From positions 1 to 58,760 of the IMG/VR virus record IMGVR_UViG_3300025127_000039: a stretch of DNA of 58,760 bases; one strand, written 5' to 3'. The DNA comes from a virus (taxonomy: Duplodnaviria; Caudoviricetes). A program made the translations under genes and the position numbers. The notes under the pieces were generated by a model that had not been told where the DNA came from, searched no databases, and worked only from the letters and a program-made list of their open reading frames with translations. Shown here in pieces: positions 31,982-50,115 of the stretch. The first letter of the stretch is position 1. Each line of letters begins with the position of its first letter.

Positions 31982-34159
31982 ATGGTAATGAACATTATTA
32001 AATTTGGCAACAGTAAACGCAGTATGGATTCTAAGGAATTAGTTGAATTAATAAGTCAAAAAGTTCCATCACAAGTTCAAATTGATTTATTGAGAGAAAC
32101 GTATCCACAAGGTGTCATAAGAGGGGATCAATTTACTATAGGTTCGCTTGGTGGTGAGGCAGGCAAGTCTTTAAAAATAGACATAAATCCTAGATCACCA
32201 TACTTTATGAAAGGACAAGATTTTAATGGTGCAGACGGAGTAGGTGGCATAGTTAAGATATTGATGGAAGGTAGAAATATGAAGTTACCGGAGGTTAAAG
32301 AGTTGTTCGCCTCATATCTTGATGAAGGCACGCCACAACCAGTTGAATCAATTAGTTCTATTATTAAACCGGAATCAAAACAAATAAACATAAACACGCC
32401 TTATGATAGCGAACATAAATATTTGAACGCTCAAGGTGAGTTACTTTGCTTAGTACGCAGATACAATGATATAGATGAACACGGAAATCCTATATTAGAC
32501 TCACATGGCAAACCAAAAAAAGAATTTAGACAGTTTGCTGGAGGCAGTAATTATCCACGTATGCCTGATGTTCGTCCATTATACAATATACCAAATATTA
32601 TAGCTTCAGAAAAAATTATATGGGTTGAGGGGGAAAAATGTGCAGATGCACTTAATGAACTTGGTTATACTGCAACTTGCACAATGGGTGGTGCCGGTAT
32701 GCTTTCAAGAAAGTCTGCAAACTTATTTGACTTTTCTCCGTTGCATGACAAAGAATTAATCATATGGCCAGATAATGATACTGCTGGTCGCAAAGTTGCA
32801 GAGCTAGTACAAGAACTTGCTCTTAACGCCAGTGTTAAATCAGTTACTACATTAACGCCACCAAGAGGTAAGCCTGAAAGATGGGATGTGGTAGATGCTA
32901 TTGCAGAGCAATTTAACATAAATGAATTTCTCAACACTAACATCAAGCAAATAAAAAAGAACATTAATCTTCTTGATGACAGTTTGTTAATTAACAGATT
33001 TGTTGGAGAGGCACCGGAGCAAAAGTTTTTGATAGCTAACACATTACCTTTAGCAGTGCCTATTATATTTTCTGCCGCAGGTGACAGTGGTAAAGGTATG
33101 ATGACATTGGACTTAGCAATGAAAGTATCAAGTGGTCAATCAATGCAAGAATCTTTTGGTGGCATGATTAGTGAGTTTGGCAATTCAATTATATTTACTG
33201 CCGAAGATGATGAAGCAGAGATGCACAGAAGAATTGATAGACTTGATTTTGAAAACAATAGGCAAAGTTTTGAGCATGAGTTACGAATCGTTAGTTTGCC
33301 TAATGTTGGTGGTGTCTTTCCTATACTGCAAGAAACACATGATGGTTACAGAACAAGCGATGAATTTGATAAAATATATGAACAAATACTGCAAATGAAG
33401 AACTTAAAACTTATAGTATTTGATCCTTTGGCTTCATTTGTACACGCAGATGTAAACTCTGATCCTGCGGCGGGTGCGGCTTTAACTGGTTTGTTAGCAC
33501 AAATAGCTACTGAAACCGGTGCCTCAGTCATAATGTGTCATCATATGACTAAAGTTAAAGAAGATTTAGTTGTAAGCACACCGGAACAAGCAAGAAATAT
33601 GATTAGAGGCACGTCTGCATTAGTTGATGGTGTTCGTTGTGCGTTTGCATTATGGCAAGTTGACGAAGCAACTGGGCGTAGAAGATGTCAAGATTTAGGC
33701 ATAGAATATAAAAGAAACAAATGCTTTGATGGTGCAGTCGTTAAATCTAATGGGCCAGCTAACAGAAACATAAGGCACTTTATTAGAGATGAATATAGTG
33801 GATTACTTGTGGATAAAAGCGAAGATATATCAAGATTACATACCGGCTCAAATAAAGAAATCAAAAAGACTGCGTTGTTTAATTGGATTGCAGATTGTGA
33901 AAGAGAGGGCAGAGCTATGACACAACAGTCCGGTGCAGATGCTATTTTGCAAAGAATGTCTGCTGATACTGATGCACCAAGGGTTTTAAACAACTGCACA
34001 CAAAGAATGATTGATGGTCTTGTTAGAGAGTTAATACAAGAGGGCAGACTGGCTAAGTATTCCTTTAGTACAAGTGGTGGCAGAAAGTGGCTTGGCACCA
34101 TTGATGGCGATATGAGTAGAGGTGAATACGAGGCAACCACTGCAAGAGATAATGTATAA
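31982..34159 (+). CDS. TOPRIM primase fused to an AAA_25/RepA-like helicase
   Basis: VEGEKCADA and WPDND TOPRIM motifs; AAGDSGKG Walker A variant; AEDD, FDPL, HHMTK, RGTSA motifs. Confidence 0.85.
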   Translation: MVMNIIKFGNSKRSMDSKELVELISQKVPSQVQIDLLRETYPQGVIRGDQFTIGSLGGEAGKSLKIDINPRSPYFMKGQDFNGADGVGGIVKILMEGRNMKLPEVKELFASYLDEGTPQPVESISSIIKPESKQININTPYDSEHKYLNAQGELLCLVRRYNDIDEHGNPILDSHGKPKKEFRQFAGGSNYPRMPDVRPLYNIPNIIASEKIIWVEGEKCADALNELGYTATCTMGGAGMLSRKSANLFDFSPLHDKELIIWPDNDTAGRKVAELVQELALNASVKSVTTLTPPRGKPERWDVVDAIAEQFNINEFLNTNIKQIKKNINLLDDSLLINRFVGEAPEQKFLIANTLPLAVPIIFSAAGDSGKGMMTLDLAMKVSSGQSMQESFGGMISEFGNSIIFTAEDDEAEMHRRIDRLDFENNRQSFEHELRIVSLPNVGGVFPILQETHDGYRTSDEFDKIYEQILQMKNLKLIVFDPLASFVHADVNSDPAAGAALTGLLAQIATETGASVIMCHHMTKVKEDLVVSTPEQARNMIRGTSALVDGVRCAFALWQVDEATGRRRCQDLGIEYKRNKCFDGAVVKSNGPANRNIRHFIRDEYSGLLVDKSEDISRLHTGSNKEIKKTALFNWIADCEREGRAMTQQSGADAILQRMSADTDAPRVLNNCTQRMIDGLVRELIQEGRLAKYSFSTSGGRKWLGTIDGDMSRGEYEATTARDNV

Positions 34160-35996
34160 AATAGTAGATTTATTTAGTGGCATAGGAGGATTTAGCTATG
34201 CTGCCGAACAAATAGTAGGTGGCTTTGAAACAATAGCTTTCGTTGAAAGAGACGAATATTGTCAAAAAGTCTTGCGTAAACATTGGCACGATGTACCAAT
34301 ATATAGTGATATAAGGAGTTTTGATGGTAAAGAATACAAAGACGCAGATATCGTTGTTGGAGGATTCCCATGTCAACCCTGGTCGGTTGCAGGAGCTCAA
34401 AAGGGAAGCGAAGATGACAGAGATCTCTGGCACGAAATGGTTAGGATTATTGAAGACATACGGCCACGATGGATCATTGGCGAGAATGTGTCAGGCTTTG
34501 TTACAATGCCAATGGGTCTCAGAAGAAGTCTCATTGACTTGGAAAGTATCGGATACAAAGCCATCCCATATCTTATTCCAGCTGCAGCCGTCGACGCCAA
34601 GCATAGACGAATGCGATGCTGGATTGTGGGCCACACCGAACACGATGGATCATCTGCCACCCCGTTCAGAGGAAGGAACAATGAAGCTGATGGAGGGTCA
34701 ACGCAAGGGACGAACAAAACCGGCGAACTTGAGGGAGCAAGTGGACAACAAGACAATGGATATATACAAACAGACATCTTCGACTTTGTGGCCGACACCA
34801 ACGACACAGGAGATAGAGCACCCGCAAGCGGAGTTGACAACGAACAACAGAAGGTTGAGCAAGGACGGGAAGAGCAGCCACAGTCTGAACTTAGCAGACA
34901 CAGTAAAGATGTGGCCAACGCCAACAACAATGGACACGAAGGAAGATGCGTTGAAACACGCAACCAAACTTTTACAGGGCAAAACACACAGAGCAAGTGG
35001 AGAGCCGATACAGAAGTCATTAGTGGACAAAGTAATGATGGAAGAGATAAAGAAAAATCCGGAATTGATGAAGATTTACGAAGATCACGAAATGGTTTTT
35101 CGTCCAAACTTACCACCACAACAGGAGTTTGTGGCTTATCTCAGAGAACAAACAACAATCAAGGAGTTGTCAGAGAAAACGGATATAAAGAAAACAACAA
35201 TAGAACATTGGTTTCGCAAGGATCAAAAGGGATTCAGTCATCCAAGCATAGAGGATTGGGAGAAGATAAAACCACATCTGAATCAAATCAAGTACGATCA
35301 ACAGATGACCACTATAAAAACAAAAGAATGGAAAAAAACAAATCAAATGTGGAGAACGCCAACGGCAGCGAATGCGACACAGGGGCCGAAGAGCGAACAA
35401 CTTTACCACAAAGTGAAGAAAGACGGCTCAAGTGCAATAACATTAGTGGACGAAGTGAAGATGTTCCCAACACCAAGGGCAAGGGATTGGAAAGACGGAT
35501 ACAGAGTACCACCATCAGTACAGAACGGAACGAGAGCACACACTCTGGGAACATTTATAGCAGAGAAAGAGATAATGTGGCCGACACCGACAACAAAGGG
35601 GTACGGACACGCATCAATGGGTCAAACAATGATCTTCAGAAAAAAAGTGGAAGCCGGGGAAATGACCGAACAACAAGCAGAGCAGATGTTGGGTTGCACA
35701 CTAAGACCACCAAGAATGGAGAAATGGGATTATCCCAAAAAGGAGATGTTCCCTACGCCATCGGCAAACGAAGATGCAGCGGGACGACCAGGGGGGAAGA
35801 TGCAAAAGATGTTAGGCAACCATCCTTCCGTGAGAGACCAGTCCTCTGGAACCCTGAACCCAACGTGGGTAGAGTGGCTAATGGGGTACCCAATAGGGTA
35901 CACAGACTTAGATGTTTAGGGAATAGTATCGTGCCACAGGTCGTTGCAAGAATATTTTATGCTATTAAGGAGGCAGATAAAAATGAAAAAATATGA
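34152..35996 (+). CDS. C5 DNA cytosine methyltransferase, alpha (catalytic) polypeptide
   Basis: Motifs I (DLFSGIGG), IV (GFPCQ), VI (ENV), VIII (HRRMRCWIV) and X (RLRCLGNSIVPQ); about 400 low-complexity codons in place of the TRD. Confidence 0.9.
   Translation: MYKIVDLFSGIGGFSYAAEQIVGGFETIAFVERDEYCQKVLRKHWHDVPIYSDIRSFDGKEYKDADIVVGGFPCQPWSVAGAQKGSEDDRDLWHEMVRIIEDIRPRWIIGENVSGFVTMPMGLRRSLIDLESIGYKAIPYLIPAAAVDAKHRRMRCWIVGHTEHDGSSATPFRGRNNEADGGSTQGTNKTGELEGASGQQDNGYIQTDIFDFVADTNDTGDRAPASGVDNEQQKVEQGREEQPQSELSRHSKDVANANNNGHEGRCVETRNQTFTGQNTQSKWRADTEVISGQSNDGRDKEKSGIDEDLRRSRNGFSSKLTTTTGVCGLSQRTNNNQGVVRENGYKENNNRTLVSQGSKGIQSSKHRGLGEDKTTSESNQVRSTDDHYKNKRMEKNKSNVENANGSECDTGAEERTTLPQSEERRLKCNNISGRSEDVPNTKGKGLERRIQSTTISTERNESTHSGNIYSRERDNVADTDNKGVRTRINGSNNDLQKKSGSRGNDRTTSRADVGLHTKTTKNGEMGLSQKGDVPYAIGKRRCSGTTRGEDAKDVRQPSFRERPVLWNPEPNVGRVANGVPNRVHRLRCLGNSIVPQVVARIFYAIKEADKNEKI
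34324..35919 (+). CDS. Nested +1-frame protein, predicted C5-MTase beta subunit (tandem TRD-like modules plus motif IX)
   Basis: AAGGAG SD at 34313-34318; about 531 aa open; seven W/F-x-T-P repeats; C-terminal LNPTWVEWLMGYPIGYT. Confidence 0.8.
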   Translation: MVKNTKTQISLLEDSHVNPGRLQELKREAKMTEISGTKWLGLLKTYGHDGSLARMCQALLQCQWVSEEVSLTWKVSDTKPSHILFQLQPSTPSIDECDAGLWATPNTMDHLPPRSEEGTMKLMEGQRKGRTKPANLREQVDNKTMDIYKQTSSTLWPTPTTQEIEHPQAELTTNNRRLSKDGKSSHSLNLADTVKMWPTPTTMDTKEDALKHATKLLQGKTHRASGEPIQKSLVDKVMMEEIKKNPELMKIYEDHEMVFRPNLPPQQEFVAYLREQTTIKELSEKTDIKKTTIEHWFRKDQKGFSHPSIEDWEKIKPHLNQIKYDQQMTTIKTKEWKKTNQMWRTPTAANATQGPKSEQLYHKVKKDGSSAITLVDEVKMFPTPRARDWKDGYRVPPSVQNGTRAHTLGTFIAEKEIMWPTPTTKGYGHASMGQTMIFRKKVEAGEMTEQQAEQMLGCTLRPPRMEKWDYPKKEMFPTPSANEDAAGRPGGKMQKMLGNHPSVRDQSSGTLNPTWVEWLMGYPIGYTDLDV

Positions 35997-36419: not shown

Positions 36420-37748
36420 ATGGATAATAAGTTTAGTAAACCCATGATGGCAAGTGAGATTGTTGCAGCATTATCTGATCCATCACGAGGTGTAAAAGGT
36501 TATATAAAAGGTAAGTATGCTAAAGCTATGGCAAGATCTGTTCAGTCAGATATTGCATCATCTCAAAAATTTGTTTTATCAAATAATTTAGTTGATCATG
36601 TTGTTGCCAACGCATTTTTAAAACCTGAAGCAATGCTTGGACAAATTAAAACCGGCATACCACCATTTACAAATATGTTTATTGAGTGGGATGATTCTTA
36701 TCTTCAAAAGGCTATTTATAAACATTTAGCTAAAACTTTTAATAAAGAGTTGTCTACAAAAAAACAAATGGGTGAAAATTACTTTGATATAGATGATCTA
36801 CCAGCTAAACAACATAAAAATAGAGCTGGTTATCATATTCATCAAGTTAATGATAGTTGGTTGTATGAACTTTGGTTTAAAGATCAAGAAAGCGGCAAGT
36901 ATGCCGCATTTCCAAAATGTATAGTCATTGAACATGATGAAGATTACTCAATGGAAAAACATTATGGTCAATATGAAAAAGAAAAATGGATGATGCCATC
37001 TGATTTACATCATTTTGACAGAGATCAGATGAGACTTGCAGTACATACTGTAGGAGCACATCTTTGGGGTAATCATTATCAAACTGTACAAAGTTATGGA
37101 GAAACCCATAGAAGATTAATACGTTCTATGAGAAAAGATAGTGATAGAGAACTTAGAAGTACAAAGAAATCAAATCATTTCATTAGAAGATTACAAACTT
37201 ATTTTAAAACTGAAGAAAGCACAGCCAAGTTTTTTGATCCATATTATTTAGATTTAATGTGCAGAACTGCTACTGCACAAGGATCTGCAATGCACTGGTT
37301 GATTCCTGAAAGTAAGTTTCAACAAGGTTGGACATCTGAAGAAATGAGTGCACTTACCAAATATACTATGGATAGTGTTTCAATGGATGTACAAATTCTA
37401 ATTTCAACTTTGGCTATTCTTAATTATGAACACATAGTTATGCAAAAAAAGAATCCAAGTGAAGACAAAATAAAGCACGTTGCTTATGGCAGAAGAGTGC
37501 CTGCAAATGAATATTCACTACTTGAAATAGATTTACCCAAGCCTAGAGGTAAACTGTTTTATGAACGTGAATTTACCGGACATGGATCACCAAAGAGGTG
37601 GCACATGAGAAGAGGTCATTGGAGACGTTATCGTGATGCAAAAGGTAATATCACGAAAAGAGTTTGGATTGACCAATGTGAGGCTGGCAGTAAAGAGTTA
37701 GGCTCAAAAATAAACGACTATAACTTACAAAAAGCAAAAGGAGAGTAG
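36420..37748 (+). CDS. Hypothetical protein with C-terminal H-x-RRGHWR motif
   Basis: 442 aa, GAGGAG SD, SPKRWHMRRGHWRR. Confidence 0.75.
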   Translation: MDNKFSKPMMASEIVAALSDPSRGVKGYIKGKYAKAMARSVQSDIASSQKFVLSNNLVDHVVANAFLKPEAMLGQIKTGIPPFTNMFIEWDDSYLQKAIYKHLAKTFNKELSTKKQMGENYFDIDDLPAKQHKNRAGYHIHQVNDSWLYELWFKDQESGKYAAFPKCIVIEHDEDYSMEKHYGQYEKEKWMMPSDLHHFDRDQMRLAVHTVGAHLWGNHYQTVQSYGETHRRLIRSMRKDSDRELRSTKKSNHFIRRLQTYFKTEESTAKFFDPYYLDLMCRTATAQGSAMHWLIPESKFQQGWTSEEMSALTKYTMDSVSMDVQILISTLAILNYEHIVMQKKNPSEDKIKHVAYGRRVPANEYSLLEIDLPKPRGKLFYEREFTGHGSPKRWHMRRGHWRRYRDAKGNITKRVWIDQCEAGSKELGSKINDYNLQKAKGE

Positions 37749-38259: not shown

Positions 38260-38585
38260 TGTTAGTTATAATAGAATCACCCTATATGGGTAATGTTAAA
38301 AGTAATGTCGCATATGCACGCAAGTGTATGAGCGACTCCCTACTGCGAGGCGAATCCCCATTTGCCTCGCATCTTCTTTACACACAAATTTTAGATGACA
38401 ATAAAGATATAGAACGTCTTACCGGAATGTCTAGGGCATTTAATTGGTATCGCCACGCAGATCTAATGGCAGTTTACACAGACAAAGGTATATCAAATGG
38501 CATGAAAATGGGCATGGAAGTAGCAGAGAAGCTCGGAATAGAAATGGTTTATAGGACATTAAATGGAAATAATAATAGAGGGTAG
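38259..38585 (+). CDS. DUF4406 / nucleoside-deoxyribosyltransferase-like fold protein
   Basis: VIIESPY.G...PFASHLLYTQ.LDD...GIS.GM pattern. Confidence 0.6.
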   Translation: MLVIIESPYMGNVKSNVAYARKCMSDSLLRGESPFASHLLYTQILDDNKDIERLTGMSRAFNWYRHADLMAVYTDKGISNGMKMGMEVAEKLGIEMVYRTLNGNNNRG

Positions 38586-39867
38586 TACAGTTTATAATGG
38601 CGACTGTTTAGAAGTCATGGAGAAAATACATAAGTGTTCGGTGGACAGTGTGGTAACCGATCCGCCGTATCACCTTACATCTATTGTTCAGAGGTTCGGA
38701 AAAGAAGGTTCGGCACCAGCACAGTTCGGTACAGACGGAGCGTTTGCTAGGGCATCAAAAGGTTTCATGGGCAAAGAGTGGGATGGAGGTGATATAGCTT
38801 TCCAAGCGAACACTTGGCGTAAATGTTATGAGTTGCTGAAGCCTGGAGGTCATTTGATAGCGTTTAGCGGATCACGAACATACCACAGAATGGCTTGTGC
38901 CATAGAAGATGCCGGATTTGAAATTAGAGATCAATGTATTTGGTTGTATGGTAGTGGGTTTCCTAAAAGCCATAATATCGGCAGAGAGATAGATAAGAAA
39001 CAAGGCAATGATAGAGAGGTCGTTGGAGAGGTAAGGGCAGGCAAAAACGCATTAGGCCAAGATAGTGGTTGGAACAAACACAACAATAGAACTGAAATAG
39101 AAGTTACTAAAGGCAACTCAGAATGGGAGGGTTGGGGTACTGCGTTGAAACCTGCACATGAACCAATGGTGTTAGCAAGAAAGCCTTTGTCGGAGAAGTC
39201 GGTAGCAGACAACGTGATGCAGCACGGAACTGGAGCCATAAACATTGACGCTTGTCGTGTTGGTGGTCAGTCAGAAGATACAGAGCGTAAAAAAGTTGTT
39301 CGCAAAGCTCGGACAGCAGATGGCGTGTGGACTGATGATAATAGTGGCATGAAGTCGGAGGGTTCGGAGTTTGCAGATGCAGACCCAAGAGGGCGTTGGC
39401 CGAGCAATGTGATGCACGATGGCAGCGAACAAGTGCAAGAAATATTCCCGGAAACTAGCAGCACGGAGGTCAGCAGAGAGCGAACACACAAGGGGATTTG
39501 GACTGCCGGTGAACTGGCAGATACCGAACAATTCATGCCAGCATATGGCGACCAGGGCAATGCGTCTAGGTATTTTTATTGTGCAAAGACATCAAAAGAA
39601 GAGCGTAAATTTGGACTGGGTGGTGAGGTTGCAGCGAACACTCACCCAACAGTTAAACCAGTTGAGCTAATGAGATACCTTGTTCGCTTGATAACGCCAA
39701 AGGAAGGTGTGGTTCTCGATCCATTTATGGGAAGTGGATCAACTGGAATGGCAGCTAGAGAGGAGGATTTTAGCTTCATTGGAATAGAAAAAGAAAGCGA
39801 ATATTATGAAATTGCCAAAGCAAGAATTAAAAATGTTAAGCCACAGTTAAAATTATTTGACTTTTAG
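38563..39867 (+). CDS. DNA N6-adenine/N4-cytosine methyltransferase, beta class
   Basis: GDCLE, TDPPY, HPTVKP, LDPFMGSGST, GIE motifs in beta order. Confidence 0.92.
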   Translation: MEIIIEGSTVYNGDCLEVMEKIHKCSVDSVVTDPPYHLTSIVQRFGKEGSAPAQFGTDGAFARASKGFMGKEWDGGDIAFQANTWRKCYELLKPGGHLIAFSGSRTYHRMACAIEDAGFEIRDQCIWLYGSGFPKSHNIGREIDKKQGNDREVVGEVRAGKNALGQDSGWNKHNNRTEIEVTKGNSEWEGWGTALKPAHEPMVLARKPLSEKSVADNVMQHGTGAINIDACRVGGQSEDTERKKVVRKARTADGVWTDDNSGMKSEGSEFADADPRGRWPSNVMHDGSEQVQEIFPETSSTEVSRERTHKGIWTAGELADTEQFMPAYGDQGNASRYFYCAKTSKEERKFGLGGEVAANTHPTVKPVELMRYLVRLITPKEGVVLDPFMGSGSTGMAAREEDFSFIGIEKESEYYEIAKARIKNVKPQLKLFDF

Positions 39868-40396: not shown

Positions 40397-40590
40397 TGAT
40401 TGCTATTCCCAATAATTGGATAGATGCGTCATTTGATGACGTATCTATCTATCATACTAAAGATTTAGCCATATATTTTAATAAATATGATTATGAGGTT
40501 CATAACATCAACATTAACAAGAGTAAATTTTCATTGTTGCTCAAGGCTAATGATTTTAGTGAAGTAATTAATTTTGTTAATGAAAGGTAG
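40396..40590 (+). CDS. Hypothetical protein
   Basis: 64 aa, coupled TAATG. Confidence 0.5.
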   Translation: MIAIPNNWIDASFDDVSIYHTKDLAIYFNKYDYEVHNININKSKFSLLLKANDFSEVINFVNER

Positions 40591-40594
40591 AGTA

Positions 40595-41047
40595 ATGTTA
40601 TATGGTGCATATGGTGCAAATTTAAATAAAGAAAGCATGAAGATACGTTGTCCTGACGCAAAGCCTATGATTAGTTTCCATTTAAAAGGTTATAGGCTTG
40701 TCTTTAATAGTGTTGCAGACATTGTTAAAGACCCAAAGGGTACTGTTCCTATTGTGCTTTGGAAGATCACAAAGAAGTGTGAAAAGGCTTTGGATAGGTT
40801 TGAGGGTTATCCTTTCCTATACAATAAGATAAGAGTGCAATCAGATATTCCGGGAGCCAAAGGTAAAATAATGCTCTATGTGATGCGTAGGAAAGGTATT
40901 GCCATACCACCTACTTCTTACTTTAAGACCATAGAAGAGGGTTATGATGACTTTGGTTTAGATAAAACATATCTGTATAGTGCCAAAGCAAAGGCTTCAG
41001 AATATCAAGAACTTAATTTAAATCTAGCAAGAAAGGTAGGTTCATAA
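40595..41047 (+). CDS. Gamma-glutamylcyclotransferase (AIG2-like) family protein
   Basis: YGAYGANLN...RCP...LDRFEGYP.LY...P...Y motifs. Confidence 0.85.
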   Translation: MLYGAYGANLNKESMKIRCPDAKPMISFHLKGYRLVFNSVADIVKDPKGTVPIVLWKITKKCEKALDRFEGYPFLYNKIRVQSDIPGAKGKIMLYVMRRKGIAIPPTSYFKTIEEGYDDFGLDKTYLYSAKAKASEYQELNLNLARKVGS

Positions 41048-41899: not shown

Positions 41900-42364
41900 G
41901 TGCGAACTTTGAAACTTAAAACAGTACCAATGAGCATACAAGAAGCTAATGAGTTTGTAGCGAACTTTCATAGACATAGCAAACCAACACAAGGTGGCAA
42001 GTTTGCAATCGGAGCTAGTTGTGATGGATTATTCGGTGTAGCAATAGTCGGTAGACCTATAGCAAGGAGATTAGATGACGGATTCACGGCAGAGGTGTTG
42101 CGTGTTTGTGTGAACTCTAACGCACCAAAGAATACTTGTTCGTTTCTGTATGGAAGGTGTTGGAGAATATGGCAACAGATGGGTGGAATGAAGATGATAA
42201 CATATACCTTACAAAGCGAGTCAGGTTCTAGTTTGCGTGGTGTGGGGTGGAAAATTATGGGAGAAACTGGTGGTTGGAATGAAAACAAAGGTTGGACAAC
42301 TAGACCGAATAGAGATTGGTTGCCAATCTATGGGCAGTTAAAATTTAGATGGGAGAAAACATAA
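41900..42364 (+). CDS. Mom-like GNAT-fold DNA-modification protein (XF1762-like)
   Basis: HRH, GVAIVGRP.AR, EVLRVC, CSFLY, ITYTL..ESGSSL...GW, K.RW motifs. Confidence 0.7.
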   Translation: MRTLKLKTVPMSIQEANEFVANFHRHSKPTQGGKFAIGASCDGLFGVAIVGRPIARRLDDGFTAEVLRVCVNSNAPKNTCSFLYGRCWRIWQQMGGMKMITYTLQSESGSSLRGVGWKIMGETGGWNENKGWTTRPNRDWLPIYGQLKFRWEKT

Positions 42365-42891
42365 TGCCAAAAGTAGGAGAAGATTTATCAAGAGAGCAAA
42401 GGCTTGCTGGTCAGAAAAGATTGACTGATAAACAACAGGCTTTCCTTGATAACTTTATGCACAAGGATATGACGCAGACTGCAGCAGCAAGAAAGGCTGG
42501 ATATGCGAACCCTGGTGTTGATGCTGTTCGCTTGTTGCGTAACCCGGTGGTGCAAGAGCGATACCAGGAGATGCAAGAAGAAGCTCGGTCAAGGTTCGGT
42601 GTAACAATTGAAAAGTCGCTGCGTGATCTGTTAAAGATCCGTGAATTAGCCATAGATAGGGAGAAATATGGCGATGCAATCCGTGCTGAAGAACTCAGAT
42701 TAAAAGCAACTGGACTGCTAGTCAATAAGGCTCATGTGCTACATGAACAAGTTGACAGTCTAACAAGAGAACAAATAGTAGAAAAACTACAAGAATTTCA
42801 AGAACTTGCACAGAAACGCATGAAAGTAGCCACAAAGACCCAAGACGACCCACTTACGATAGAGCATGATAACATAAATACCCAAAAATAA
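42364..42891 (+). CDS. terS: Terminase small subunit
   Basis: LTDKQQAF...TQTAAARKAGY...RLLRNPVV HTH plus helical oligomerisation region. Confidence 0.8.
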   Translation: MPKVGEDLSREQRLAGQKRLTDKQQAFLDNFMHKDMTQTAAARKAGYANPGVDAVRLLRNPVVQERYQEMQEEARSRFGVTIEKSLRDLLKIRELAIDREKYGDAIRAEELRLKATGLLVNKAHVLHEQVDSLTREQIVEKLQEFQELAQKRMKVATKTQDDPLTIEHDNINTQK

Positions 42892-42904
42892 CGCATACAC
42901 TTGG

Positions 42905-43282
42905 TGTGTTCGGTCATGCGTGGAGGATCGGACTTTCCAGTCGGACTTTCGGACTCGGACTTGTTCGGTGTCGGAGGTTGTCGGACTGGCTTCTGCCGTG
43001 CCTTCTGCTGCATTGTTCGCTCTGCGTGCAGCTGCCGGATCAAGCTGTTGAAGCGAATGATTGTTCGGTGTCGGACTGGACGCAAGCTGCTAAACGAATT
43101 ATTGTTCGTTCTGACGTGCTCGGCGTCGAGCACCTTGAACAATTGTTCGGTCTAGGAGGCTCAGCAGCGGGAAGCTGCTACGCATTAGCTACGGCGGTCA
43201 GCACGCTGCAGAAGACTAGCGAACTATTGTTCGCTCCGGCACCAGGCCGCAAGCAGCTCGCTGCTGCGAACATTGGCAGCTT
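42905..43282. repeat. GC-rich repeat array A
   Basis: TCGGAC cluster 42928-42986; (C)GAAYNATTGTTCG at 43054, 43095, 43136, 43220; partial TTGTTCG at 42961, 43013. Confidence 0.85.
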
Positions 43283-43302
43283 GAAAAAAAATTATTTAGA
43301 GG

Positions 43303-43332
43303 TTGACAAGTAGGCATTGAATACCATATAAT
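43303..43332 (+). promoter_or_regulatory. Consensus sigma70 promoter with UP element and operator
   Basis: TTGACA-18-TATAAT, upstream A-tract; TAGG cattgaata CCAT. Confidence 0.8.
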
Positions 43333-43363
43333 ATATATGCAAACGAAACAAAAGGGGGTCATT

Positions 43364-43702
43364 ATGACACAACAAAATAAAAAATATGTTGTTCCTGGTC
43401 AAGGCGACATGGAAAGCATTAAAGAACTCATGAATAAACTAGACGCACATAATGGCGAGTGCGATTACTGTCTTGAAGAAATTAATCAGTATCCTTTAGA
43501 GGTTAAGAAAACTCAAGGCTATGAACTTCTTTTGGGGACTGGGGGTCCGGCAACAAGGATTGTTGGTCAGATCAATGAGTATGGCGAGCCAGTGACGGCA
43601 GAACTGCAAGGGCAAGACTGGGGAACCCAATGGGAAAGAACAGAGGGACAAGATGAAAAAACTCTGTTGCAATTTGCTCAACACTTTTACTTTGGGGGTT
43701 AA
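43364..43702 (+). CDS. Early hypothetical protein
   Basis: AAAGGGGG SD before ATG 43364; acidic; LLGTGGPA motif. Confidence 0.7.
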   Translation: MTQQNKKYVVPGQGDMESIKELMNKLDAHNGECDYCLEEINQYPLEVKKTQGYELLLGTGGPATRIVGQINEYGEPVTAELQGQDWGTQWERTEGQDEKTLLQFAQHFYFGG

Positions 43703-43703
43703 G

Positions 43704-43784
43704 ATGTTCGGAATGTTTATCGTTAACGCACTAGCAGCGATCACCTTGTTCGGTTTTTTCTTCTATCTGCTTCTCATCACCTAG
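43704..43784 (+). CDS. 26-aa single-helix hydrophobic peptide (not in ORF track)
   Basis: MFGMFIVNALAAITLFGFFFYLLLIT; GGGGG SD; starts 1 nt after the upstream stop and precedes a terminator. Confidence 0.55.
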   Translation: MFGMFIVNALAAITLFGFFFYLLLIT

Positions 43785-43789
43785 ATAAT

Positions 43790-44250
43790 TTCGGACATTG
43801 TTCGGAGTTCGGACCCAGATCCTTCACCGGTCTGGGTCTTTTTGTTCGTGCCTCTGCTGCCGTCCGGGTGATAACGAATGATTGTTCGCTGCCTTCTGCT
43901 GCACCGGTGTGCTCGGAGCGAATGATTGTTCGCTCTTCAGCTTGTCCCGGCGGCCGCAAGCTGATCGTTTTGCTGCCGGATCTGTCACCGCACGAACTAT
44001 TGTTCGCTCACGCTTCCCGGCCCGTTCTACACCGCCTAAAAAAAAAGTCCCAGAATTCTGGGATTGTTCGCCCTTCAGTAGCAGCGCAGCTGACACCCTA
44101 GCTGCAACGCTAGACCGGCGTGAAGCACAAGCGAACTATTGTTCGGTATGATCGGACATCGGACTCGGACTGTCGGACTTCGGACATCCGGACATCTGCA
44201 GCACCAGGTTGCAGCTTGCAGCTTTTTCCGGTTTTTTGAGCGAACAATCT
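43790..44250. repeat. GC-rich repeat array B
   Basis: CGAAYNATTGTTCG at 43875, 43919, 43993, 44132; partial copies at 43798, 43842, 44064; CGGAC cluster at 44152-44193. Confidence 0.85.
43812..43843 (+). terminator. Rho-independent terminator
   Basis: GACCCAGATC-cttcacc-GGTCTGGGTC-TTTTT. Confidence 0.75.
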
Positions 44251-44373
44251 AATATTCGTTTGATTTATTCGTTTAAATTAATTTCATAAATAGGTATTCA
44301 ATGCTTGAGATGTTCGCTTAAAAATGTTAACATTGATTCGCACAAACATTAATCATTACGAAAGGACTTTATT

Positions 44374-45486
44374 ATGATTGATATAGCAATAGGATTTGAA
44401 AGAGAAGTTGACTCCTTATCTGTAAGAGATGGAATCAATATCTTTGCAAATCATCCAACTTTAAACTTTATAAAAGTTAAACACGATGCGAGTCTTCCAA
44501 ATGGTTGTGAGATTATCTTTCCACCTTTGAGTAGTAAAGCAGAATCTACTTGGCAATATTCAAGTCAAGTTAATGATTTGATTATTGCAAATGGTGGAAG
44601 AATAACTCGTCAATGTGGTCATCATGTTCATTTTGGATTGAAACCAATAACAATGAATTGTGAGGATTTTAACAGACAATCAATTCAATTGTTTAAAGAT
44701 AGAAACCAATACTTCCAAGACTCAAATGATATGTTTCAATTTGAAGTTATCAAAGACGTTGTTTATAGATATGCACAATATCAAGACTTCATATCAAGTT
44801 TCTTAGCACCTAGTCGCAGAAACTCAAGATATGCAAGTCCTATAAATGGTTTCTTAAATAGAATAGAAGATTCTAGAGATATGACTCAATTAAAGAATTG
44901 TATTAATGGAAAGTTTTATTCTGTTAACTTATCTAATATTGATATTAGAAATCAAAAAGGAACGATTGAGTTTAGACAACATCAAGGAACAGTAAACAAT
45001 ACTAAGTTAAAAAATTGGATTATGTTTCTTGTTAATATGTTTGATTATACAATCAATCATAGAATCCAAGTTGTAAGACAAGGCGAAAAGTTTATTGATA
45101 ACTTACAAAATACAATGCCAAGAAATACCAAACTCCATCAAGTTTTTGAGATGTTACAAACAGATAATGGTGCGACTACTCGTGAGATTATGGACTCTGT
45201 TGGTATTAATGATGCAAGATCTGTAAGAAGAACCATTAACACTATAAGACGTAAACTAGGCGATTGTAGTTTGGTTATTTGTTTGACTCAAGAATACTAT
45301 GGTCATTTAAATGGTACGTCTAATGGTCTTTACGACTTGAATGGATACAAGATTCCAAAGCAAGTTGAGAGAGAATCTCAAGGCGAAGTTATCATTGATA
45401 ACAATGCAGATTCCCATGTGTTTAGTAACTTAGCAGAGTCATTAAAGACATGGTTTAACAACAGAATATCAAGTCTAGGTAACTAG
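44374..45486 (+). CDS. Putative amidoligase (COOH-NH2 ligase type 2) with C-terminal HTH-like domain
   Basis: GFERE, HDASL, CEIIFPPL, CGHHVH, SRR...YA, KFYSVN, GTIEFRQHQGT motifs; AAAGGA SD. Confidence 0.85.
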   Translation: MIDIAIGFEREVDSLSVRDGINIFANHPTLNFIKVKHDASLPNGCEIIFPPLSSKAESTWQYSSQVNDLIIANGGRITRQCGHHVHFGLKPITMNCEDFNRQSIQLFKDRNQYFQDSNDMFQFEVIKDVVYRYAQYQDFISSFLAPSRRNSRYASPINGFLNRIEDSRDMTQLKNCINGKFYSVNLSNIDIRNQKGTIEFRQHQGTVNNTKLKNWIMFLVNMFDYTINHRIQVVRQGEKFIDNLQNTMPRNTKLHQVFEMLQTDNGATTREIMDSVGINDARSVRRTINTIRRKLGDCSLVICLTQEYYGHLNGTSNGLYDLNGYKIPKQVERESQGEVIIDNNADSHVFSNLAESLKTWFNNRISSLGN

Positions 45487-45524
45487 ACTTGATTAACTTC
45501 ACAAACATAAACAAGGAGTCAATT

Positions 45525-45764
45525 ATGACAATCAATAAAACAATCAAAGCGAATAATAAAAAGTATAATTTACAATTTAAACCAACTCCAATTTTAGGTG
45601 GCGAGTATGAGTTGGATTCTGATAATGGAAAACTTCTCCAAGATTACGCAACTTTGAATCCATTTCCAAACCAATTGTTTTTTTACAGTCATATTAATAT
45701 CATTGATAAAGTATTAGATGAACAAGACGAAACGATTGAGTACGTCAAAAGAATCTATAAGTAA
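45525..45764 (+). CDS. Hypothetical protein co-transcribed with the amidoligase
   Basis: AAGGAG SD before ATG 45525; 79 aa. Confidence 0.65.
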   Translation: MTINKTIKANNKKYNLQFKPTPILGGEYELDSDNGKLLQDYATLNPFPNQLFFYSHINIIDKVLDEQDETIEYVKRIYK

Positions 45765-45789
45765 CCGAGCTACTCGAAATAGCTTCGGT

Positions 45790-45819
45790 GGGGGGCATAC
45801 CATATGCCCCCCTTTTTTT
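45790..45819 (+). terminator. Rho-independent terminator
   Basis: GGGGGGCATA-cca-TATGCCCCCC-TTTTTTT. Confidence 0.9.
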
Positions 45820-45916
45820 GTTTTTGCGTTATAGGGTAGCAACGCACTCGGTTTTCCTCAAATACCCCCCAATGTTTTAGAAACGGCAGCTAAAAAAAAT
45901 TTTATAAAAAAATTTC

Positions 45917-45945
45917 TTGACCTTTAGGCACTCAAATCCTATGTT
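45917..45945 (+). promoter_or_regulatory. Promoter with TAGG-N9-CCTA operator
   Basis: TTGACC-17-TATGTT; TAGG cactcaaat CCTA at 45925-45941; upstream A/T tracts. Confidence 0.7.
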
Positions 45946-45951
45946 AAGATT

Positions 45952-46188
45952 ATGAAAACATATATCATGGAAAGTGGTGATGGGTATTCTGAGTTTACTG
46001 GAAGTCCATCACAAATTATAGATCAGATGACAACTCAATCCAAACTGGCGTTTAAGAACAGGGAGGATATGAGGCGTACTTATGCGTCATTTGCTTGTGA
46101 TTGGACAGGCAGTGCAGTTAGGTTTCATTCAGATGAGGATTTGGTTAGCGATTTAATTCTAAGTGGCGTGTTAAAGGAGCAAAAATGA
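45952..46188 (+). CDS. Hypothetical protein (possibly leaderless)
   Basis: 78 aa; ATG 6 nt after the predicted -10, no SD. Confidence 0.65.
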   Translation: MKTYIMESGDGYSEFTGSPSQIIDQMTTQSKLAFKNREDMRRTYASFACDWTGSAVRFHSDEDLVSDLILSGVLKEQK

Positions 46189-46592
46189 AAAAGAACGACC
46201 AAAGTTTTAGTGATTGGAGTGGTGATGAGCTAAAAACTCACCGCAAAGACCTAAATTTAAGTCAGATAGACATGGCAAAGAGGCTTGGTCTTAGCGAAAG
46301 AGGGTACAGATGTTACGAAACGGACAAATATCGCATACCATTGTCTGTAAAGTACGCAGTTTTGTATTGGATTGACACCAAAAAGGCAGAAAAAGCAGCT
46401 AAAACCATAAAAAGTTATGATGATGACAAAAAACCACTAACAAAATTTGAAAAAGAGCGTATTTGGAAGCTATGCAACGCCATAGATCACACAATTGGTG
46501 ATGCAGAGAAGCGACAAGATGAGATTTGGGTAACAAGATTGCTCGATCAGAGCAATCGTGAGATGACAATGATGTTGCAAAAAGAAAGTTAG
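46185..46592 (+). CDS. XRE-family HTH regulator
   Basis: LKTHRKDLNLSQIDMAKRLGLSERGYRCYE...IP; AAGGAG SD. Confidence 0.85.
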   Translation: MKKNDQSFSDWSGDELKTHRKDLNLSQIDMAKRLGLSERGYRCYETDKYRIPLSVKYAVLYWIDTKKAEKAAKTIKSYDDDKKPLTKFEKERIWKLCNAIDHTIGDAEKRQDEIWVTRLLDQSNREMTMMLQKES

Positions 46593-46633
46593 TATTATAA
46601 TATCTTCAAAAGAAGCTTTTTTGGAGATTTTTA

Positions 46634-48649
46634 ATGGCAAATGGACCTTTAGGTGGTTTTATGCCGACACCGGCAGCACCTGCACAGCCACCATCTATAA
46701 AATTAGACACCACAGCAAGTAGTAGAGGCACATTTAACAACTTTTTAAAATCAATGAATGGTGCAACATCGCTTAATCCTCCGAGTATGGCACCTATGGT
46801 GGGTGCCAACCCTATGATGGCACCCGCTGCTAACATAGATATATTTAACGAGCCAGTTGCAATGATGCAAAATGGTGGAGACCCAATGGATGCTTCTTTT
46901 AGTGATTTTGCTGGTTTTAGTGATCCTTCTGATCCTTTTGGCGGTGGTGATACATCAATAGATGATGTAGGTTCAGAGGAAGATCCAACACCAAGCATAG
47001 GTTTGACTTCAGAAATGATACAAGCTGGCACTCGTGATGATCCTTTGAATGTATTTGCAGATGATCCAAGTTCTGCCACGCCAATGGGTTTAACAATGCC
47101 ATCTGGACAAAATTTTAGTACACAAGCAGCCACAGGCACAAACCTAAATTTTGATCAAAATACTCTAAACGAAATTAAAGCACAAATTAACAATAGGAAT
47201 GAGGTTGCTTTAACTGAAGAAGATAATTTTTTCAACAAAGATGGTTCACTAAAACCAAGTGGTATCGCTGAATTAAACAAAAGAAACGCAGAAGATTTGC
47301 AACAAGTCATGGCAGGTAATGTTCCGGCTTCAACATACATATCTGCGGATAGTGCAAGTGATATTCTAGGTGACGCTGATATATTAGATTTAGGTAAAAA
47401 AACAGATCAGATTGATCCATTTGCCATACAACCAACTTTTCAAAACTTTGGATTACCAGGCGTGAGTGGTCTTCCGACTGTTAAGTCAACAAGAAGCACA
47501 GTTGCACAAGATCAAGCAAGAGCTATAGCCAATTTAGTTGGTGATAGAGCACCGACAATAGAAGAGCAATTGCAACAAAACGTATTAGCAGATAGAGGTA
47601 GGGCGTTAGGACCTACAACTTTTAGTGATGATTTAGCAAATTTTCAAGAGAGAGTAACTCTCTCTCCGCCGCCAGATGATTATGAAGAGCAAGTTGGAAC
47701 TATGGGTGCAAGAATTGGTGGGGGAATGTTTCCTAAAATGTACGCTCCAGGTCAATCTGAAATTCAATACACTACAAAAGGCACCACACCTCAAGAGCAA
47801 AGAGAATTAAGAGAACTTAGAGACATAGATGAGGCTATTGAGGTTGCAGAAAGAGGTCCTTTAACTTTTCAAACACAAACTCAAAAATCAACTGCACCAG
47901 AGGATTTTGAGGAAAACGTAGGTTTGCCGTTTAGTGATAGGCGTATGAGAGACATTGAAAGATTATACAATGTTCCTCAAGGCCAAAGAAGAACTGGCGA
48001 GGGTGATGATCCGAACATATTGTCTGGCATACCATCTGCGTTAAATATATTTGAAAGAATACCAAGAGAGCAAATGGCAATAGATGTTGCTTTAGGTAGA
48101 CCGAGATCTTTTACTGAAATGATTAGAGGATTTACTGCCACACCAGCTAGAAACATGGATGAATTTACAGGCAGATTGCAAAGAGATACCATTGGTCCAG
48201 AGGGCGATACTACTGGTTTTACATCTAAAACCATACCAGAAAGTCAATTGATAAGAAACAACAGAGGCAGGATAACGGCTATAACTGATGCTTCTGGCAG
48301 AACAATTACTGGCGTAAATCCAGATGAAGAGATTTTTGGTAGTGATGATAATCAACTTCCTATAATTAAAAGACCTATAGCACCGGTTGTTGAGGAGAAA
48401 AAAGATGATGACAAGCCACCCAACGTAATAGGTGGCGGTGCTCCACGTCCAGTTACAGAACCTGTGCCAACTGTGGTTGCTAGTCCTTTTGCACCATCTA
48501 GTGCAAACATAAGTCCAGTAACATTTGACACTGGTGAATTAAATAAATTGATAGAGTTACTAACTGGCGTATCGGCAAAGCCAGTTGTTGCCAAACAAGA
48601 AGGTGGGTTAGTAAGTGCAGTTGATGAGTTTCTAGCCTCCGGTTCATGA
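46634..48649 (+). CDS. Large acidic, low-complexity protein (probable internal head protein)
   Basis: 671 aa, P/D/E-rich, MQNGG and KQEGG motifs, directly upstream of TerL. Confidence 0.65.
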   Translation: MANGPLGGFMPTPAAPAQPPSIKLDTTASSRGTFNNFLKSMNGATSLNPPSMAPMVGANPMMAPAANIDIFNEPVAMMQNGGDPMDASFSDFAGFSDPSDPFGGGDTSIDDVGSEEDPTPSIGLTSEMIQAGTRDDPLNVFADDPSSATPMGLTMPSGQNFSTQAATGTNLNFDQNTLNEIKAQINNRNEVALTEEDNFFNKDGSLKPSGIAELNKRNAEDLQQVMAGNVPASTYISADSASDILGDADILDLGKKTDQIDPFAIQPTFQNFGLPGVSGLPTVKSTRSTVAQDQARAIANLVGDRAPTIEEQLQQNVLADRGRALGPTTFSDDLANFQERVTLSPPPDDYEEQVGTMGARIGGGMFPKMYAPGQSEIQYTTKGTTPQEQRELRELRDIDEAIEVAERGPLTFQTQTQKSTAPEDFEENVGLPFSDRRMRDIERLYNVPQGQRRTGEGDDPNILSGIPSALNIFERIPREQMAIDVALGRPRSFTEMIRGFTATPARNMDEFTGRLQRDTIGPEGDTTGFTSKTIPESQLIRNNRGRITAITDASGRTITGVNPDEEIFGSDDNQLPIIKRPIAPVVEEKKDDDKPPNVIGGGAPRPVTEPVPTVVASPFAPSSANISPVTFDTGELNKLIELLTGVSAKPVVAKQEGGLVSAVDEFLASGS

Positions 48650-50115
48650 ACCTTGAATACACAGAATATTTAAGTGATGAGGAGTTATCTAAGATAGCAC
48701 CAATGCTTGAGCGTTTAAATATGCTTGAGAAACAAAAAGTATCACAAGATTTATACATGGATTTTGTTAAGCGTATATGGCCTTCGTTCATTGAGGGTAG
48801 GCACCACAAGATATACGCAGATAAATTACAACAAGTAGCAGATGGCAAGATCAAGCGTTTGATAGTGAATATGCCACCTAGACACACAAAGTCAGAGTTT
48901 GCCAGTTATTTATTTCCATCTTGGCTTATGGGCAGACGACCAGATTTAAAGATAATACAAGCAACGCACACGGCAGAGCTAGCTGTTGGTTTTGGTCGTA
49001 AGGTTAAAAACCTTATTGATAGTGATGATTTCCGTGATGTATTTCCAGATGTAAAATTAGCTGCCGATGCCAAGGCATCTGGTAGATGGTCAACGAACAA
49101 AGGTGGCGAATACTACGCTGTTGGTGTGGGTGGTGCGTTAGCTGGTCGTGGTGCAGACTTATTGATTATTGATGACCCAGTATCAGAACAAGATGCGTTA
49201 AGTCCTACTGCACTTGACAGTATTTATGAATGGTACACATCTGGACCAAGACAAAGATTGCAACCTGGTGGCTCAATCATTATAGTGATGACACGTTGGG
49301 GGATTAAAGATCTCACAGCAAGAGTGTTACAAAAGCAAGCTCAAGGAGGTGCAGATAAATGGGAAGTAGTAGAGTTTCCGGCAATATTTCCAGAGACTGG
49401 AAACGTACTTTGGCCAGAATATTGGAGCAAAGACGAGCTAGAAGGCGTGAAAGCCTCAATACCCGTAGGCAAATGGAACGCACAGTATATGCAAAATCCG
49501 ACTGCGGAAGAGGGAGCGATAATAAAAAGGGAGTGGTGGAATATTTGGAATCCTGATAACCCACCTACCTGCTCGTATATCATACAATCATACGACACAG
49601 CGTTTACAAAAAATGAGCGTTCTGATTTTAGTGCTATTACTACTTGGGGTATTTTTACTCCAGTTGAGGGAGAAGGAGATGCCATCATCTTGCTTGATGC
49701 CGAGAAAGGCAGATGGGATTTCCCAGAACTTAAACAAAAAGCAATGGAACTGTCAGAAGCATATGATCCTGACATGATATTGATTGAGCAAAAGGCAAGT
49801 GGTACGCCACTTACACAAGAGTTAAGACGCATGGGTGTGCCGGTTACTCCTTTTACGCCAAGTAAAGGTGCAGATAAATTTGCAAGAATGAACGCTTGTG
49901 CACCAGTCTTTGAGAGTGGCATGGTCTGGAGACCAGACGCTAATTTTGCAGAAGAAGTTGTAGAGGAATGTGCTAGTTTTCCACATGGCGATCATGATGA
50001 CTTGGCAGATTCGATGACACAGGCTATACTAAGATTCAGACAAGGTGGTTTTATAACTGCACCAGACGATGAAGAGTTTGAGCCAATCTACAGAAGAAAG
50101 ATGGAGTATTACTGA
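48646..50115 (+). CDS. terL: Terminase large subunit
   Basis: MPPRHTKS Walker A variant, IIDDP Walker B, MTRW, QYMQNP, SYDTA, HDDLADS nuclease motifs. Confidence 0.95.
   Translation: MNLEYTEYLSDEELSKIAPMLERLNMLEKQKVSQDLYMDFVKRIWPSFIEGRHHKIYADKLQQVADGKIKRLIVNMPPRHTKSEFASYLFPSWLMGRRPDLKIIQATHTAELAVGFGRKVKNLIDSDDFRDVFPDVKLAADAKASGRWSTNKGGEYYAVGVGGALAGRGADLLIIDDPVSEQDALSPTALDSIYEWYTSGPRQRLQPGGSIIIVMTRWGIKDLTARVLQKQAQGGADKWEVVEFPAIFPETGNVLWPEYWSKDELEGVKASIPVGKWNAQYMQNPTAEEGAIIKREWWNIWNPDNPPTCSYIIQSYDTAFTKNERSDFSAITTWGIFTPVEGEGDAIILLDAEKGRWDFPELKQKAMELSEAYDPDMILIEQKASGTPLTQELRRMGVPVTPFTPSKGADKFARMNACAPVFESGMVWRPDANFAEEVVEECASFPHGDHDDLADSMTQAILRFRQGGFITAPDDEEFEPIYRRKMEYY

Follow-up and report, generated by a model that had tools for sequence, protein, structure and literature searches.

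Opposite selection on GANTC sites within one amidoligase gene of marine phages and its co-occurrence with a phage methyltransferase

The DNA analyzed here (the window) is the whole 58,760-bp IMG/VR virus record IMGVR_UViG_3300025127_000039, the genome of a phage that, judging from its sequence, is a marine podovirus related to the HTVC023P-type pelagiphages. At 44374..45486 on the + strand, it carries a 370-amino-acid (aa) gene encoding an Amidoligase_2 domain followed by a DUF3489-like winged helix and a conserved C-terminal region, and this gene is packed with the methylation motif GANTC. We found that the GANTC content of the gene is under selection, that this selection runs in both directions (complete exclusion in some relatives, strong accumulation in others), that it is confined to the amidoligase gene, and that it co-occurs with a DNA methyltransferase encoded by the phage. 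The signal is real, selected and unusual; its mechanism is what we infer below.

An initial annotation, made from the letters of the window, had listed 19 GANTC positions between 44330 and 45764, and every one of them was confirmed. The resulting island (44335..45755), which is coextensive with a predicted transcription unit, gives 44330-45764 a density of 13.2 GANTC per kb compared with 1.64 per kb elsewhere (94 sites in the other 57.3 kb), and away from it no 1,435-bp segment held more than 6 sites (287 scanned). The window as a whole contains 113 GANTC sites, below all 100 dinucleotide shuffles (mean 147), which indicates that the genome is mildly GANTC-depleted and that the unit forms an island within it. 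The number of sites expected in 44330-45764 is 4.0 from base composition, 5.7 under a first-order Markov model (Markov-1) and 6.2 under a second-order model (Markov-2). Furthermore, when 3000 short patterns were scanned blindly, GANTC proved the most over-represented of all, with a Poisson p of 9e-6 against Markov-1, or ~0.03 after Bonferroni correction by our own arithmetic.

The excess also persisted when codons were preserved. The amidoligase open reading frame (ORF) contains 14 GANTC sites, a number reached by none of 3000 synonymous shuffles (mean 7.4, maximum 13) and by none of 3000 codon permutations (mean 3.7). Together with a small 79-aa ORF that follows it (45525..45764, + strand), it holds 17 sites, compared with 8.8 expected from the ORFs' own codon usage and 7.3 from genome-wide usage, and 0 of 1000 resamples reached 17 either way; the 79-aa ORF alone showed no significant excess (3 versus 1.4, matched by 291 of 3000 shuffles). 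The sites of the large ORF are spread across all three reading frames (8, 2 and 4). By variant, the enrichment is 5.2-fold for GACTC, 2.6-fold for GAGTC, 1.6-fold for GAATC and 1.2-fold for GATTC, the last lying inside the shuffle range.

Is the same bias present in related phages? We examined 81 other loci encoding the same three-part protein, namely the best 80 of 523 relatives and one locus (L003) from an earlier scan. All 20 loci at 43–97% identity contained 7–16 GANTC sites versus 3–5 expected. At the opposite extreme, all 61 loci at 28–39% identity contained 0 GANTC, compared with 1.6–3.5 expected in each, and their flanks had ordinary density. The bias pointed out in the initial annotation thus withstands codon-preserving shuffles and recurs in every orthologous locus of its clade; consequently, it is neither chance nor a recent import.

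Summed over the 61 distant genes, the GANTC count of 0 compares with 159.8 expected under Markov-1 and 140.3 under synonymous shuffles (minimum 109 in 100), which makes GANTC the most depleted short pattern scanned, and all four of its variants are at zero. CCNGG is second, with 2 sites versus 85.2 (Markov-1) or 51.7 (synonymous shuffles, minimum 38). Dereplication to 32 distant genes left 0 GANTC versus 74.7 and 1 CCNGG versus 27.8. GATC was unaffected in the 61 genes (184 versus 176), and their G+C content matches that of their own flanks. The exclusion is local: where a locus has a GANTC at all, the nearest lies 201 bp or more upstream, or 167 bp or more downstream, of the matched part of the gene, and the flanks are close to expectation, with ratios of observed to expected GANTC of 0.87 in the relatives without the methyltransferase and 0.67 in the genomes with it. 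Generic bacterial Amidoligase_2 genes, of which we examined 42, showed no avoidance of either motif (GANTC 55 versus 68, CCNGG 113 versus 103).

The clearest proof that selection acts at the level of the DNA is the choice of codons. Wherever Asp or Glu precedes Ser in the site-free genes (105 pairs), the serine codon is AGY, though 65% of all their serines are TCN, and the Asp/Glu-Ser dipeptide itself is under-represented (105 versus 165). The GANTC-rich genes, on the other hand, encode the serine as TCN in 112 of the 121 pairs, and the dipeptide occurs there at twice its expected frequency (121 versus 58.7). Furthermore, across 17 genes of the rich clade, GANTC occurs at 53 different alignment positions, only 4 of which are common to 13 or more genes. 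Since the positions are mostly unshared, the density must be kept by continual gain and loss of sites.

The product of the gene is a predicted ATP-dependent carboxylate-amine ligase. PF12224 (Amidoligase_2) matches residues 37-220 with 49.6 bits versus a cut-off of 22 (E 6.3e-13), and PF11994 (DUF3489) matches residues 249-294 with 23.9 bits, below its cut-off of 29.5; the homologues P0041, P0043 and P0045 bear PF11994 in precomputed annotation. The AlphaFold model (pLDDT 89.9) has three helices at 253-295, and its top Foldseek matches are 1tt4, 3ln7, 1r8g (YbdK) and glutamine synthetases, with a probability of ~1.0 and TM-scores of only 0.3–0.37 over the whole two-domain model. The modeled fold appears to resemble YbdK, glutamate-cysteine ligase and glutamine synthetase, and an alignment of 26 homologues retains 22 invariant columns, including E46, H84, H86, E199 and R201. 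At the DNA level, the unit matched none of 50,697 phage records, and a protein search returned only distant partial amidoligases at 24–29% identity.

AIG2-like cyclotransferases are predicted partners of Amidoligase_2 ligases, and such systems, with AIG2-like or GATase partners, were reportedly described in phages by Iyer and colleagues in 2009 (cited in PMC10580990). The window encodes an AIG2-like gamma-glutamyl cyclotransferase at 40574..41047 (+ strand; PF06094 (GGACT), E 1.2e-7), with homologues in all five compared genomes. The present system is therefore like the known phage ones in its PF12224 domain, its glutamine-synthetase/YbdK-like fold and the AIG2-like gene in the same genome. 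It is unlike them in the fused DUF3489-like winged helix and conserved C-terminal region, in the position of the partner gene, which lies 3.3 kb off rather than adjacent, and in its motif control, which generic members lack.

The methyltransferase that accompanies the rich state is a beta-class N6/N4 enzyme with a long insert, encoded at 38563..39867 (+ strand). PF01555 matches it with E 3e-35 and 122.6 bits versus a cut-off of 26.7, profile positions 1-220 being spread over residues 27-419. Its DPPY and FxGxG motif regions align to 5hek, and among solved structures it is closest to CcrM and an adenine methyltransferase of H. pylori, in the motif regions only. Among the compared relatives, the enzyme occurs only in the GANTC-rich clade (the window, G006, G007 and G008). 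A homologue scan returned 33 loci, of which 7 also hold the amidoligase gene, all of them GANTC-rich (9–13.7 sites per kb); including the window, 8 of 8 contigs with both genes are rich. Conversely, all four informative site-free contigs are without the enzyme. These are G001 and G002, which are 98–99% complete and also without C5 and Dam-type methyltransferases, the syntenic part of the closest site-free relative, G003, and G004, whose contig extends ~27 kb upstream.

According to passages of Seong et al. 2022 (PMC9516812), GANTC carries N6-methyladenine (m6A) in Pelagibacter, in other marine Alphaproteobacteria and in some Caudovirales metagenome-assembled genomes, genome-wide GANTC density partitions the pelagiphage phylogeny, and one viral clade has both GANTC and CCWGG methylation. 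Similarly, passages of Hiraoka et al. 2022 (PMC8919816) describe CcrM homologues as widespread in marine Alphaproteobacteria, those of SAR11 as often methylating GAWTC only, and CCNGG as methylated in 4 viral metagenome-assembled genomes. Given these reports of GANTC and CCNGG methylation in a marine setting, the two motifs excluded from the distant orthologues are real methylation targets in this environment.

The pattern resembles the pelagiphage GANTC depletion as presented in those passages (PMC9516812) in its motif, its marine setting, the idea of a link to CcrM-type methylation and the clade-wise split into low and normal density. The density described there is that of whole genomes, whereas the present pattern is restricted to a single gene, takes an all-or-none form and has a strongly enriched state besides. 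It is also like CcrM/GcrA control as outlined in PMC8919816, in which m6A at GANTC serves regulation and host genomes experience negative pressure on the motif. Unlike that control, which is known at promoters, it lies in a gene body, and the phage enzyme is not a CcrM equivalog; in addition, it is GASTC that is most strongly enriched here, and this subset is the one that the SAR11 enzymes are said in the same source to leave unmethylated.

Could the island be a patch of early DNA marked by methylation? The reading that we favor, though we give it slightly less than an even chance, is that the GANTC content of the unit is under DNA-level selection tied to host GANTC methylation or restriction, and that in the rich clade the unit is an m6A-marked patch. 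The unit would be of an early type, read by the host RNA polymerase, and would encode an amidoligase fused to a winged helix. The usual state of the family would be the full exclusion of GANTC and CCNGG from the unit, as might be expected of DNA that works before the phage is protected. When one clade gained its own adenine/N4 methyltransferase, the sign of the selection would have reversed and sites would have been gained continually, so that the unit most likely exists as a patch dense in m6A. Such dense marking is plausible given the co-occurrence of the phage N6/N4 methyltransferase with the rich state. The mark might protect the A+T-rich early DNA, or it might distinguish the fully methylated parental DNA from copies newly made by replication and thereby time the expression of the unit. 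We infer that GANTC is the target of the N6/N4 enzyme, that the unit is expressed early and that the mark has such a function; a protective function of the amidoligase is a conjecture.

Several observations weigh against this reading. The enzyme scores far below the CcrM equivalog cut-off (NF050803, 83.9 bits versus 830), its match to CcrM (6pbd) covers only residues 346-427 and is no better than that to the H. pylori enzyme, whose target is not GANTC, and comparisons with the PDB and NCBIfam assign it no target motif. The link between enzyme and rich state probably reflects one evolutionary event, for an effective sample of ~1. Genomes bearing the enzyme are not relaxed for GANTC elsewhere (1.6–2.0 per kb, as in relatives without it), the four GANTC variants are unevenly enriched, and the flanking context of the sites is asymmetric, so that part of the signal may stem from coding constraints. 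The host assignment is weak: it draws on the large terminase, whose identity is 60% with its counterpart in Pelagibacter phage HTVC027P and 56% with that in HTVC023P, and on two full-length homologues found on small binned contigs labeled Rhodobacteraceae and Alphaproteobacteria. Lastly, we know of no mechanism that makes gene-body m6A useful in bacteria.

A bolder version of the favored reading, which we consider possible but doubtful, takes the gene body to be an epigenetic device, in which exclusion switched to accumulation after the methyltransferase was gained and a dense m6A island resulted. The island might then tell parental from replicated DNA and time expression in this way. Alternatively, it might bait GANTC-binding host enzymes into the vicinity of the nascent winged-helix amidoligase, which would modify them. 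The site-free and site-packed states would, on this view, be two alternative answers to one conflict, that with GANTC methylation or restriction by the host.

The remaining explanations turn on the architecture of the locus. The island coincides with what appears to be a single sigma-70-type transcription unit bracketed by a predicted promoter and terminator, with a G+C content of 31% compared with 38% for the genome. The promoter-like site (44305..44333, + strand; TTGAGA, a 17-nt spacer and TAACAT, with TG before the second hexamer) is a consensus match only, at 9 of 12 positions, and the first GANTC (44335) abuts it. An intrinsic-terminator-like hairpin (45790..45812, + strand), with a 10-pair stem containing 7 G-C pairs and followed by a T run, closes the unit. 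The 79-aa ORF within it has an AAGGAG ribosome-binding motif and no family match; it is 84% identical in L005, has partial matches of 23–36 aa in L003, L004 and L006 to L009, and is poorly conserved, so that its coding status is uncertain. An RNA-library contig, which may be DNA carry-over, spans 45336-45644. Beyond the terminator lie a further promoter, small genes, a 671-aa protein gene, terL and the portal gene, and the long ORFs of the window are all on the + strand. Directly 3' of the island, the genome has its longest stretch without GANTC (45756..49547; 3,797 bp), which is not kept in the clade: the window and 20 related loci together have 45 sites in 33.3 kb downstream.

Upstream of the unit, the terminase small subunit gene (terS, 42349..42891, + strand; PF03592 Terminase_2, E 5.5e-11) is followed directly by two repeat arrays, and all five compared relatives have a homologue at this position. 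Array 1 (42900..43300) contains repeat families D1 to D7 and holds box copies and many GCWGC, AGCT and CCNGG sites; at 42948, one RNA-library contig has an extra TCGGACTCGGAC, which points to copy-number variation of a short repeat. Between the arrays, a sigma-70-type promoter (43303..43332, + strand; TTGACA, 18-nt spacer, TATAAT; 12 of 12 hexamer matches) precedes a 121-aa ORF (43337..43702, + strand), which has no family match below E 0.01 and has homologues in L004 (85%), L014 (74%) and L029 (45%). A terminator-like hairpin (43811-43839) follows it. Array 2 (43860..44250) has box copies at 43875, 43919, 43993 and 44132. In all, the stretch from terS to the amidoligase gene contains 22 GCWGC, 13 AGCT and 6 CCNGG sites, with 2 GANTC in the arrays.

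We compared this architecture in six genomes with amidoligases of 28–86% identity and G+C contents of 38–47%. All six have terS, then one or two arrays, promoters, small genes and the amidoligase gene, and in all six a 14-bp palindromic box, CGAAC(A/T)ATTGTTCG, is near-invariant between terS and the amidoligase gene (43054-44148 in the window, 10150-11540 in L149, and in the four other genomes). This box is probably an operator or recognition site of a conserved DNA-binding protein, for which terS or the winged helix would be candidates. The arrays carry 6–15 CCNGG each. In the site-free genome G001, the array has 11 CCNGG and 5 GANTC within about 430 bp and is followed directly by 3,459 bp without GANTC and CCNGG, the longest such gap in that genome. 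Similarly, a 1,679-bp gap without either motif is the longest in G003, and the longest GANTC-free gap of G002 is 4,899 bp, the array of G002 being without GANTC. In the distant relatives, the site-free zone begins at the array end and also covers intergenic DNA and a second array. G001 has two further ORFs here, read from their translations: a stand-alone DUF3489-like winged-helix ORF just upstream of the amidoligase gene (L149 11628-11867) and, inside the site-free zone, an ORF resembling HNH-AP2 homing endonucleases (L149 13274-13858).

The initial annotation had explained the island by staged entry as in phage T5: the unit would lie on the end that enters first, the arrays would be the signal at which injection stops, and an anti-restriction function would be expressed before the site-rich rest of the genome enters. 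The first-step-transfer DNA of T5 has no EcoRI sites, and gene 0.3 leads the genome of T7. In this respect, the distant orthologues (61 of 61) are like the leading DNA of T5 and T7, with kilobases of DNA, presumably early and read by the host polymerase, that lack sites of normal density elsewhere, as expected for early DNA exposed to restriction. The order of terS, arrays, promoters and amidoligase gene in 6 of 6 genomes is consistent with this, as are the strong host-type promoters (as sequence matches), the site-free zones that start at the array end and form the longest gaps in G001, G002 and G003, and the near-normal site density elsewhere in G001 and G002, which are without methyltransferases of the three major families. 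On the other hand, the window's clade has the opposite GANTC state from T5/T7 leading DNA, and the gene encodes an amidoligase rather than a known anti-restriction protein.

The ends of the record give staged entry no support either. Although the record is rated 100% complete and "linear" in IMG/VR, positions 1-709 and 58052-58760 are a mutual repeat (709 bp, 97% identity, 21 mismatches), and the relatives G006 and G007 are contiguous across the junction. The assembly is therefore circularly permuted, with ~58.05 kb of unique sequence, and its ends are uninformative about the physical termini. Contigs from two runs also run through 42813-44432 and 45241-45820. The very sites avoided by the unit are abundant in the arrays, which also have the conserved box next to terS; this fits a packaging or operator region at least equally well. 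The logic of restriction avoidance predicts few GANTC sites and the window has 19, an enrichment that the initial annotation's model left unexplained. Staged entry is an unlikely account, though a possible one, especially for the site-free relatives.

Less probable still is packaging gated by methylation, in which the arrays, together with the GANTC cluster in this clade, would be a methylation-dependent cleavage site for terminase. The precedent is the pac site of P1, where seven Dam sites in 162 bp of non-coding DNA gate a mapped cut. As at P1 pac, clusters of methylation motifs lie beside the small terminase gene: the arrays abut terS in 6 of 6 genomes and hold clustered methylatable motifs (the 6–15 CCNGG, the 22 GCWGC and 13 AGCT of the window, the 5 GANTC of the G001 array, which lie within about 330 bp). 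Unlike P1 pac, the 19 sites stretch across a coding unit. The island matches the coding region with its promoter and terminator rather than the arrays (2 sites), its sites are irregularly spaced over 1.4 kb and shift in position among relatives, and the G002 array has no GANTC.

We consider it similarly improbable that the GANTC sites are binding or roadblock sites for a protein (the phage methyltransferase, a GcrA-like factor or the winged helix of the product), independent of any lasting mark. Occupancy would then turn off the unit or affect the bound protein in cis, again an improbable proposal. The extent of the island, which covers one transcription unit and has one site abutting the −10 element, would suit such a role, as would the conserved winged helix of the product. 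The turnover of positions at a kept density is also what would be expected if occupancy mattered and position did not. Four specified bases, however, offer little specificity, and the conserved 14-bp array box is the better candidate operator.

Two explanations appear very remote. An artefact of composition or ancestry (low G+C, amino acid and codon usage, or recent horizontal acquisition) could appeal to the 31% G+C of the unit, to an Asp/Glu-Ser-rich protein that lifts the shuffle expectation to 7.4, to GANTC-dense stretches elsewhere that do come from Glu/Ser-rich low-complexity proteins and to the GC-rich palindromes whose absence the protein sequence largely explains, but it conflicts with codon-preserving shuffles that never reach the observed count (0 of 3000, 0 of 1000), with sites in all three reading frames, with 20 of 20 orthologues that keep the bias while their sites turn over, and with the opposite extreme in 61 of 61 at flank-matched G+C. 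A signal at the RNA level, in which a sequence-specific ribonuclease that sets the lifetime of early mRNA would target GANUC or cause its avoidance, would have a precedent in RegB of T4, a sequence-specific ribonuclease in early mRNA control, and would suit both the match of the island to a transcribed unit and the strand-asymmetric flanks (A at −1 and at +5/+6); GANTC and CCNGG, however, are both palindromes of the type II restriction/methylation kind, all four GANTC variants are at zero in the site-free genes, and the site-free zone reaches into intergenic DNA and a second array. Site-specific nicks like those of the amidoligase-bearing phage tf were dropped as an explanation, the tf sites being 9-bp and strand-specific.

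Two GANTC-dense stretches beside methyltransferase homologues, L185 5457-7631 and L176 6957-9296 (15 and 10 sites per 1.1 kb), were considered as parallels to the island and rejected. They encode Glu/Ser-rich low-complexity proteins, and their density results from the GAN-TCN codon pairs of these segments. Such cases are a caution for motif-density scans.

The initial annotation had also described the unit as purged of common restriction palindromes. Its counts hold, with GCWGC, CCGG, CCWGG, GGCC and AGCT at 0 and GATC at 1, but the purge is not significant once the protein is fixed. With genome-wide codons, the expected numbers are GCWGC 0.18, CCGG 0.06, CCWGG 0.52, GGCC 0.53, AGCT 2.47 and GATC 1.74; with expectations of only 0.06 to 2.5 each, no single absence is significant in the window, and the six together give 1 versus 5.5 expected (p ~0.03 by our own Poisson arithmetic). 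The absence thus mostly follows from the composition of the protein. Across 11 divergent clade members, CCNGG (1 versus 6.1), GGCC (0 versus 6.7), RGCY (27 versus 54.9) and TCNGA (9 versus 24.6) fall below all 100 resamples, and GATC is not depleted (32 versus 27.9), so that a purge of GC-rich palindromes across the clade is only partly supported.

The codon-level depletion of TCNGA in the rich-clade amidoligase genes (window 44374-45486 and L007 to L025) is accompanied by a flank ratio of 1.37, an enrichment that is the reverse of the GANTC pattern. The avoidance of GCGC and CGCG, on the other hand, is near-absolute and genome-wide in the clade. GCGC occurs once and CGCG twice in the 58.7-kb window, and the flanks of the clade loci contain 1 GCGC versus 191 expected and 6 CGCG versus 101. 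More distant relatives show no such avoidance.

Other modification genes lie upstream of the locus. A 624-aa C5-cytosine DNA methyltransferase is encoded at 34122..35996 (+ strand; PF00145, E 1.6e-43), with its core at residues 12-285 and a long unmatched C-terminal part. The corresponding ORF has 360–493 aa in relatives, and this length variation, together with the unmatched part, would fit a variable number of target-recognition modules, for which the enzyme is a candidate. A Mom-like (XF1762 family) DNA-modification gene lies at 41900..42364 (+ strand; phrog_1384, E 4e-32; NF045478, E 5e-49). Its presence is polymorphic: in contigs from two DNA runs, 41881 is connected to 42364 through 28 other letters, and G007 is without the gene. 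A 442-aa protein found only in the GANTC-rich clade is encoded at 36420-37748 (+ strand), and a DUF7768 protein is encoded between it and the N6/N4 methyltransferase gene. Pfam gave no match for the 442-aa protein; in the ESM Atlas clusters nearest to it, 32–41% of members carry the AcrVA2-like PF26125, which is a lead only, and as a possible partner restriction enzyme in the rich clade the protein gave no nuclease evidence. Together with the two methyltransferases and the Mom-like gene, this protein would make up a counter-defence block at 34–42.4 kb.

Regional avoidance of restriction sites in the early DNA of a few model phages and whole-genome GANTC depletion in pelagiphages are already known. 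What is new here is selection on one motif that is confined to one gene, with an all-or-none outcome across dozens of lineages and a sign that flips to strong enrichment in a clade with its own methyltransferase. Literature searches on amidoligases, GANTC over-representation, DUF3489 and AIG2 in phages found no description of a gene-level GANTC pattern. The amidoligase and winged-helix gene stands out as a leading candidate for a function in early counter-defence or takeover, and its paired site-free and site-packed alleles are a natural experiment on gene-body m6A in bacteria and phages. The pattern points to a link between a presumably early amidoligase gene and host or phage DNA methylation in abundant marine phages.

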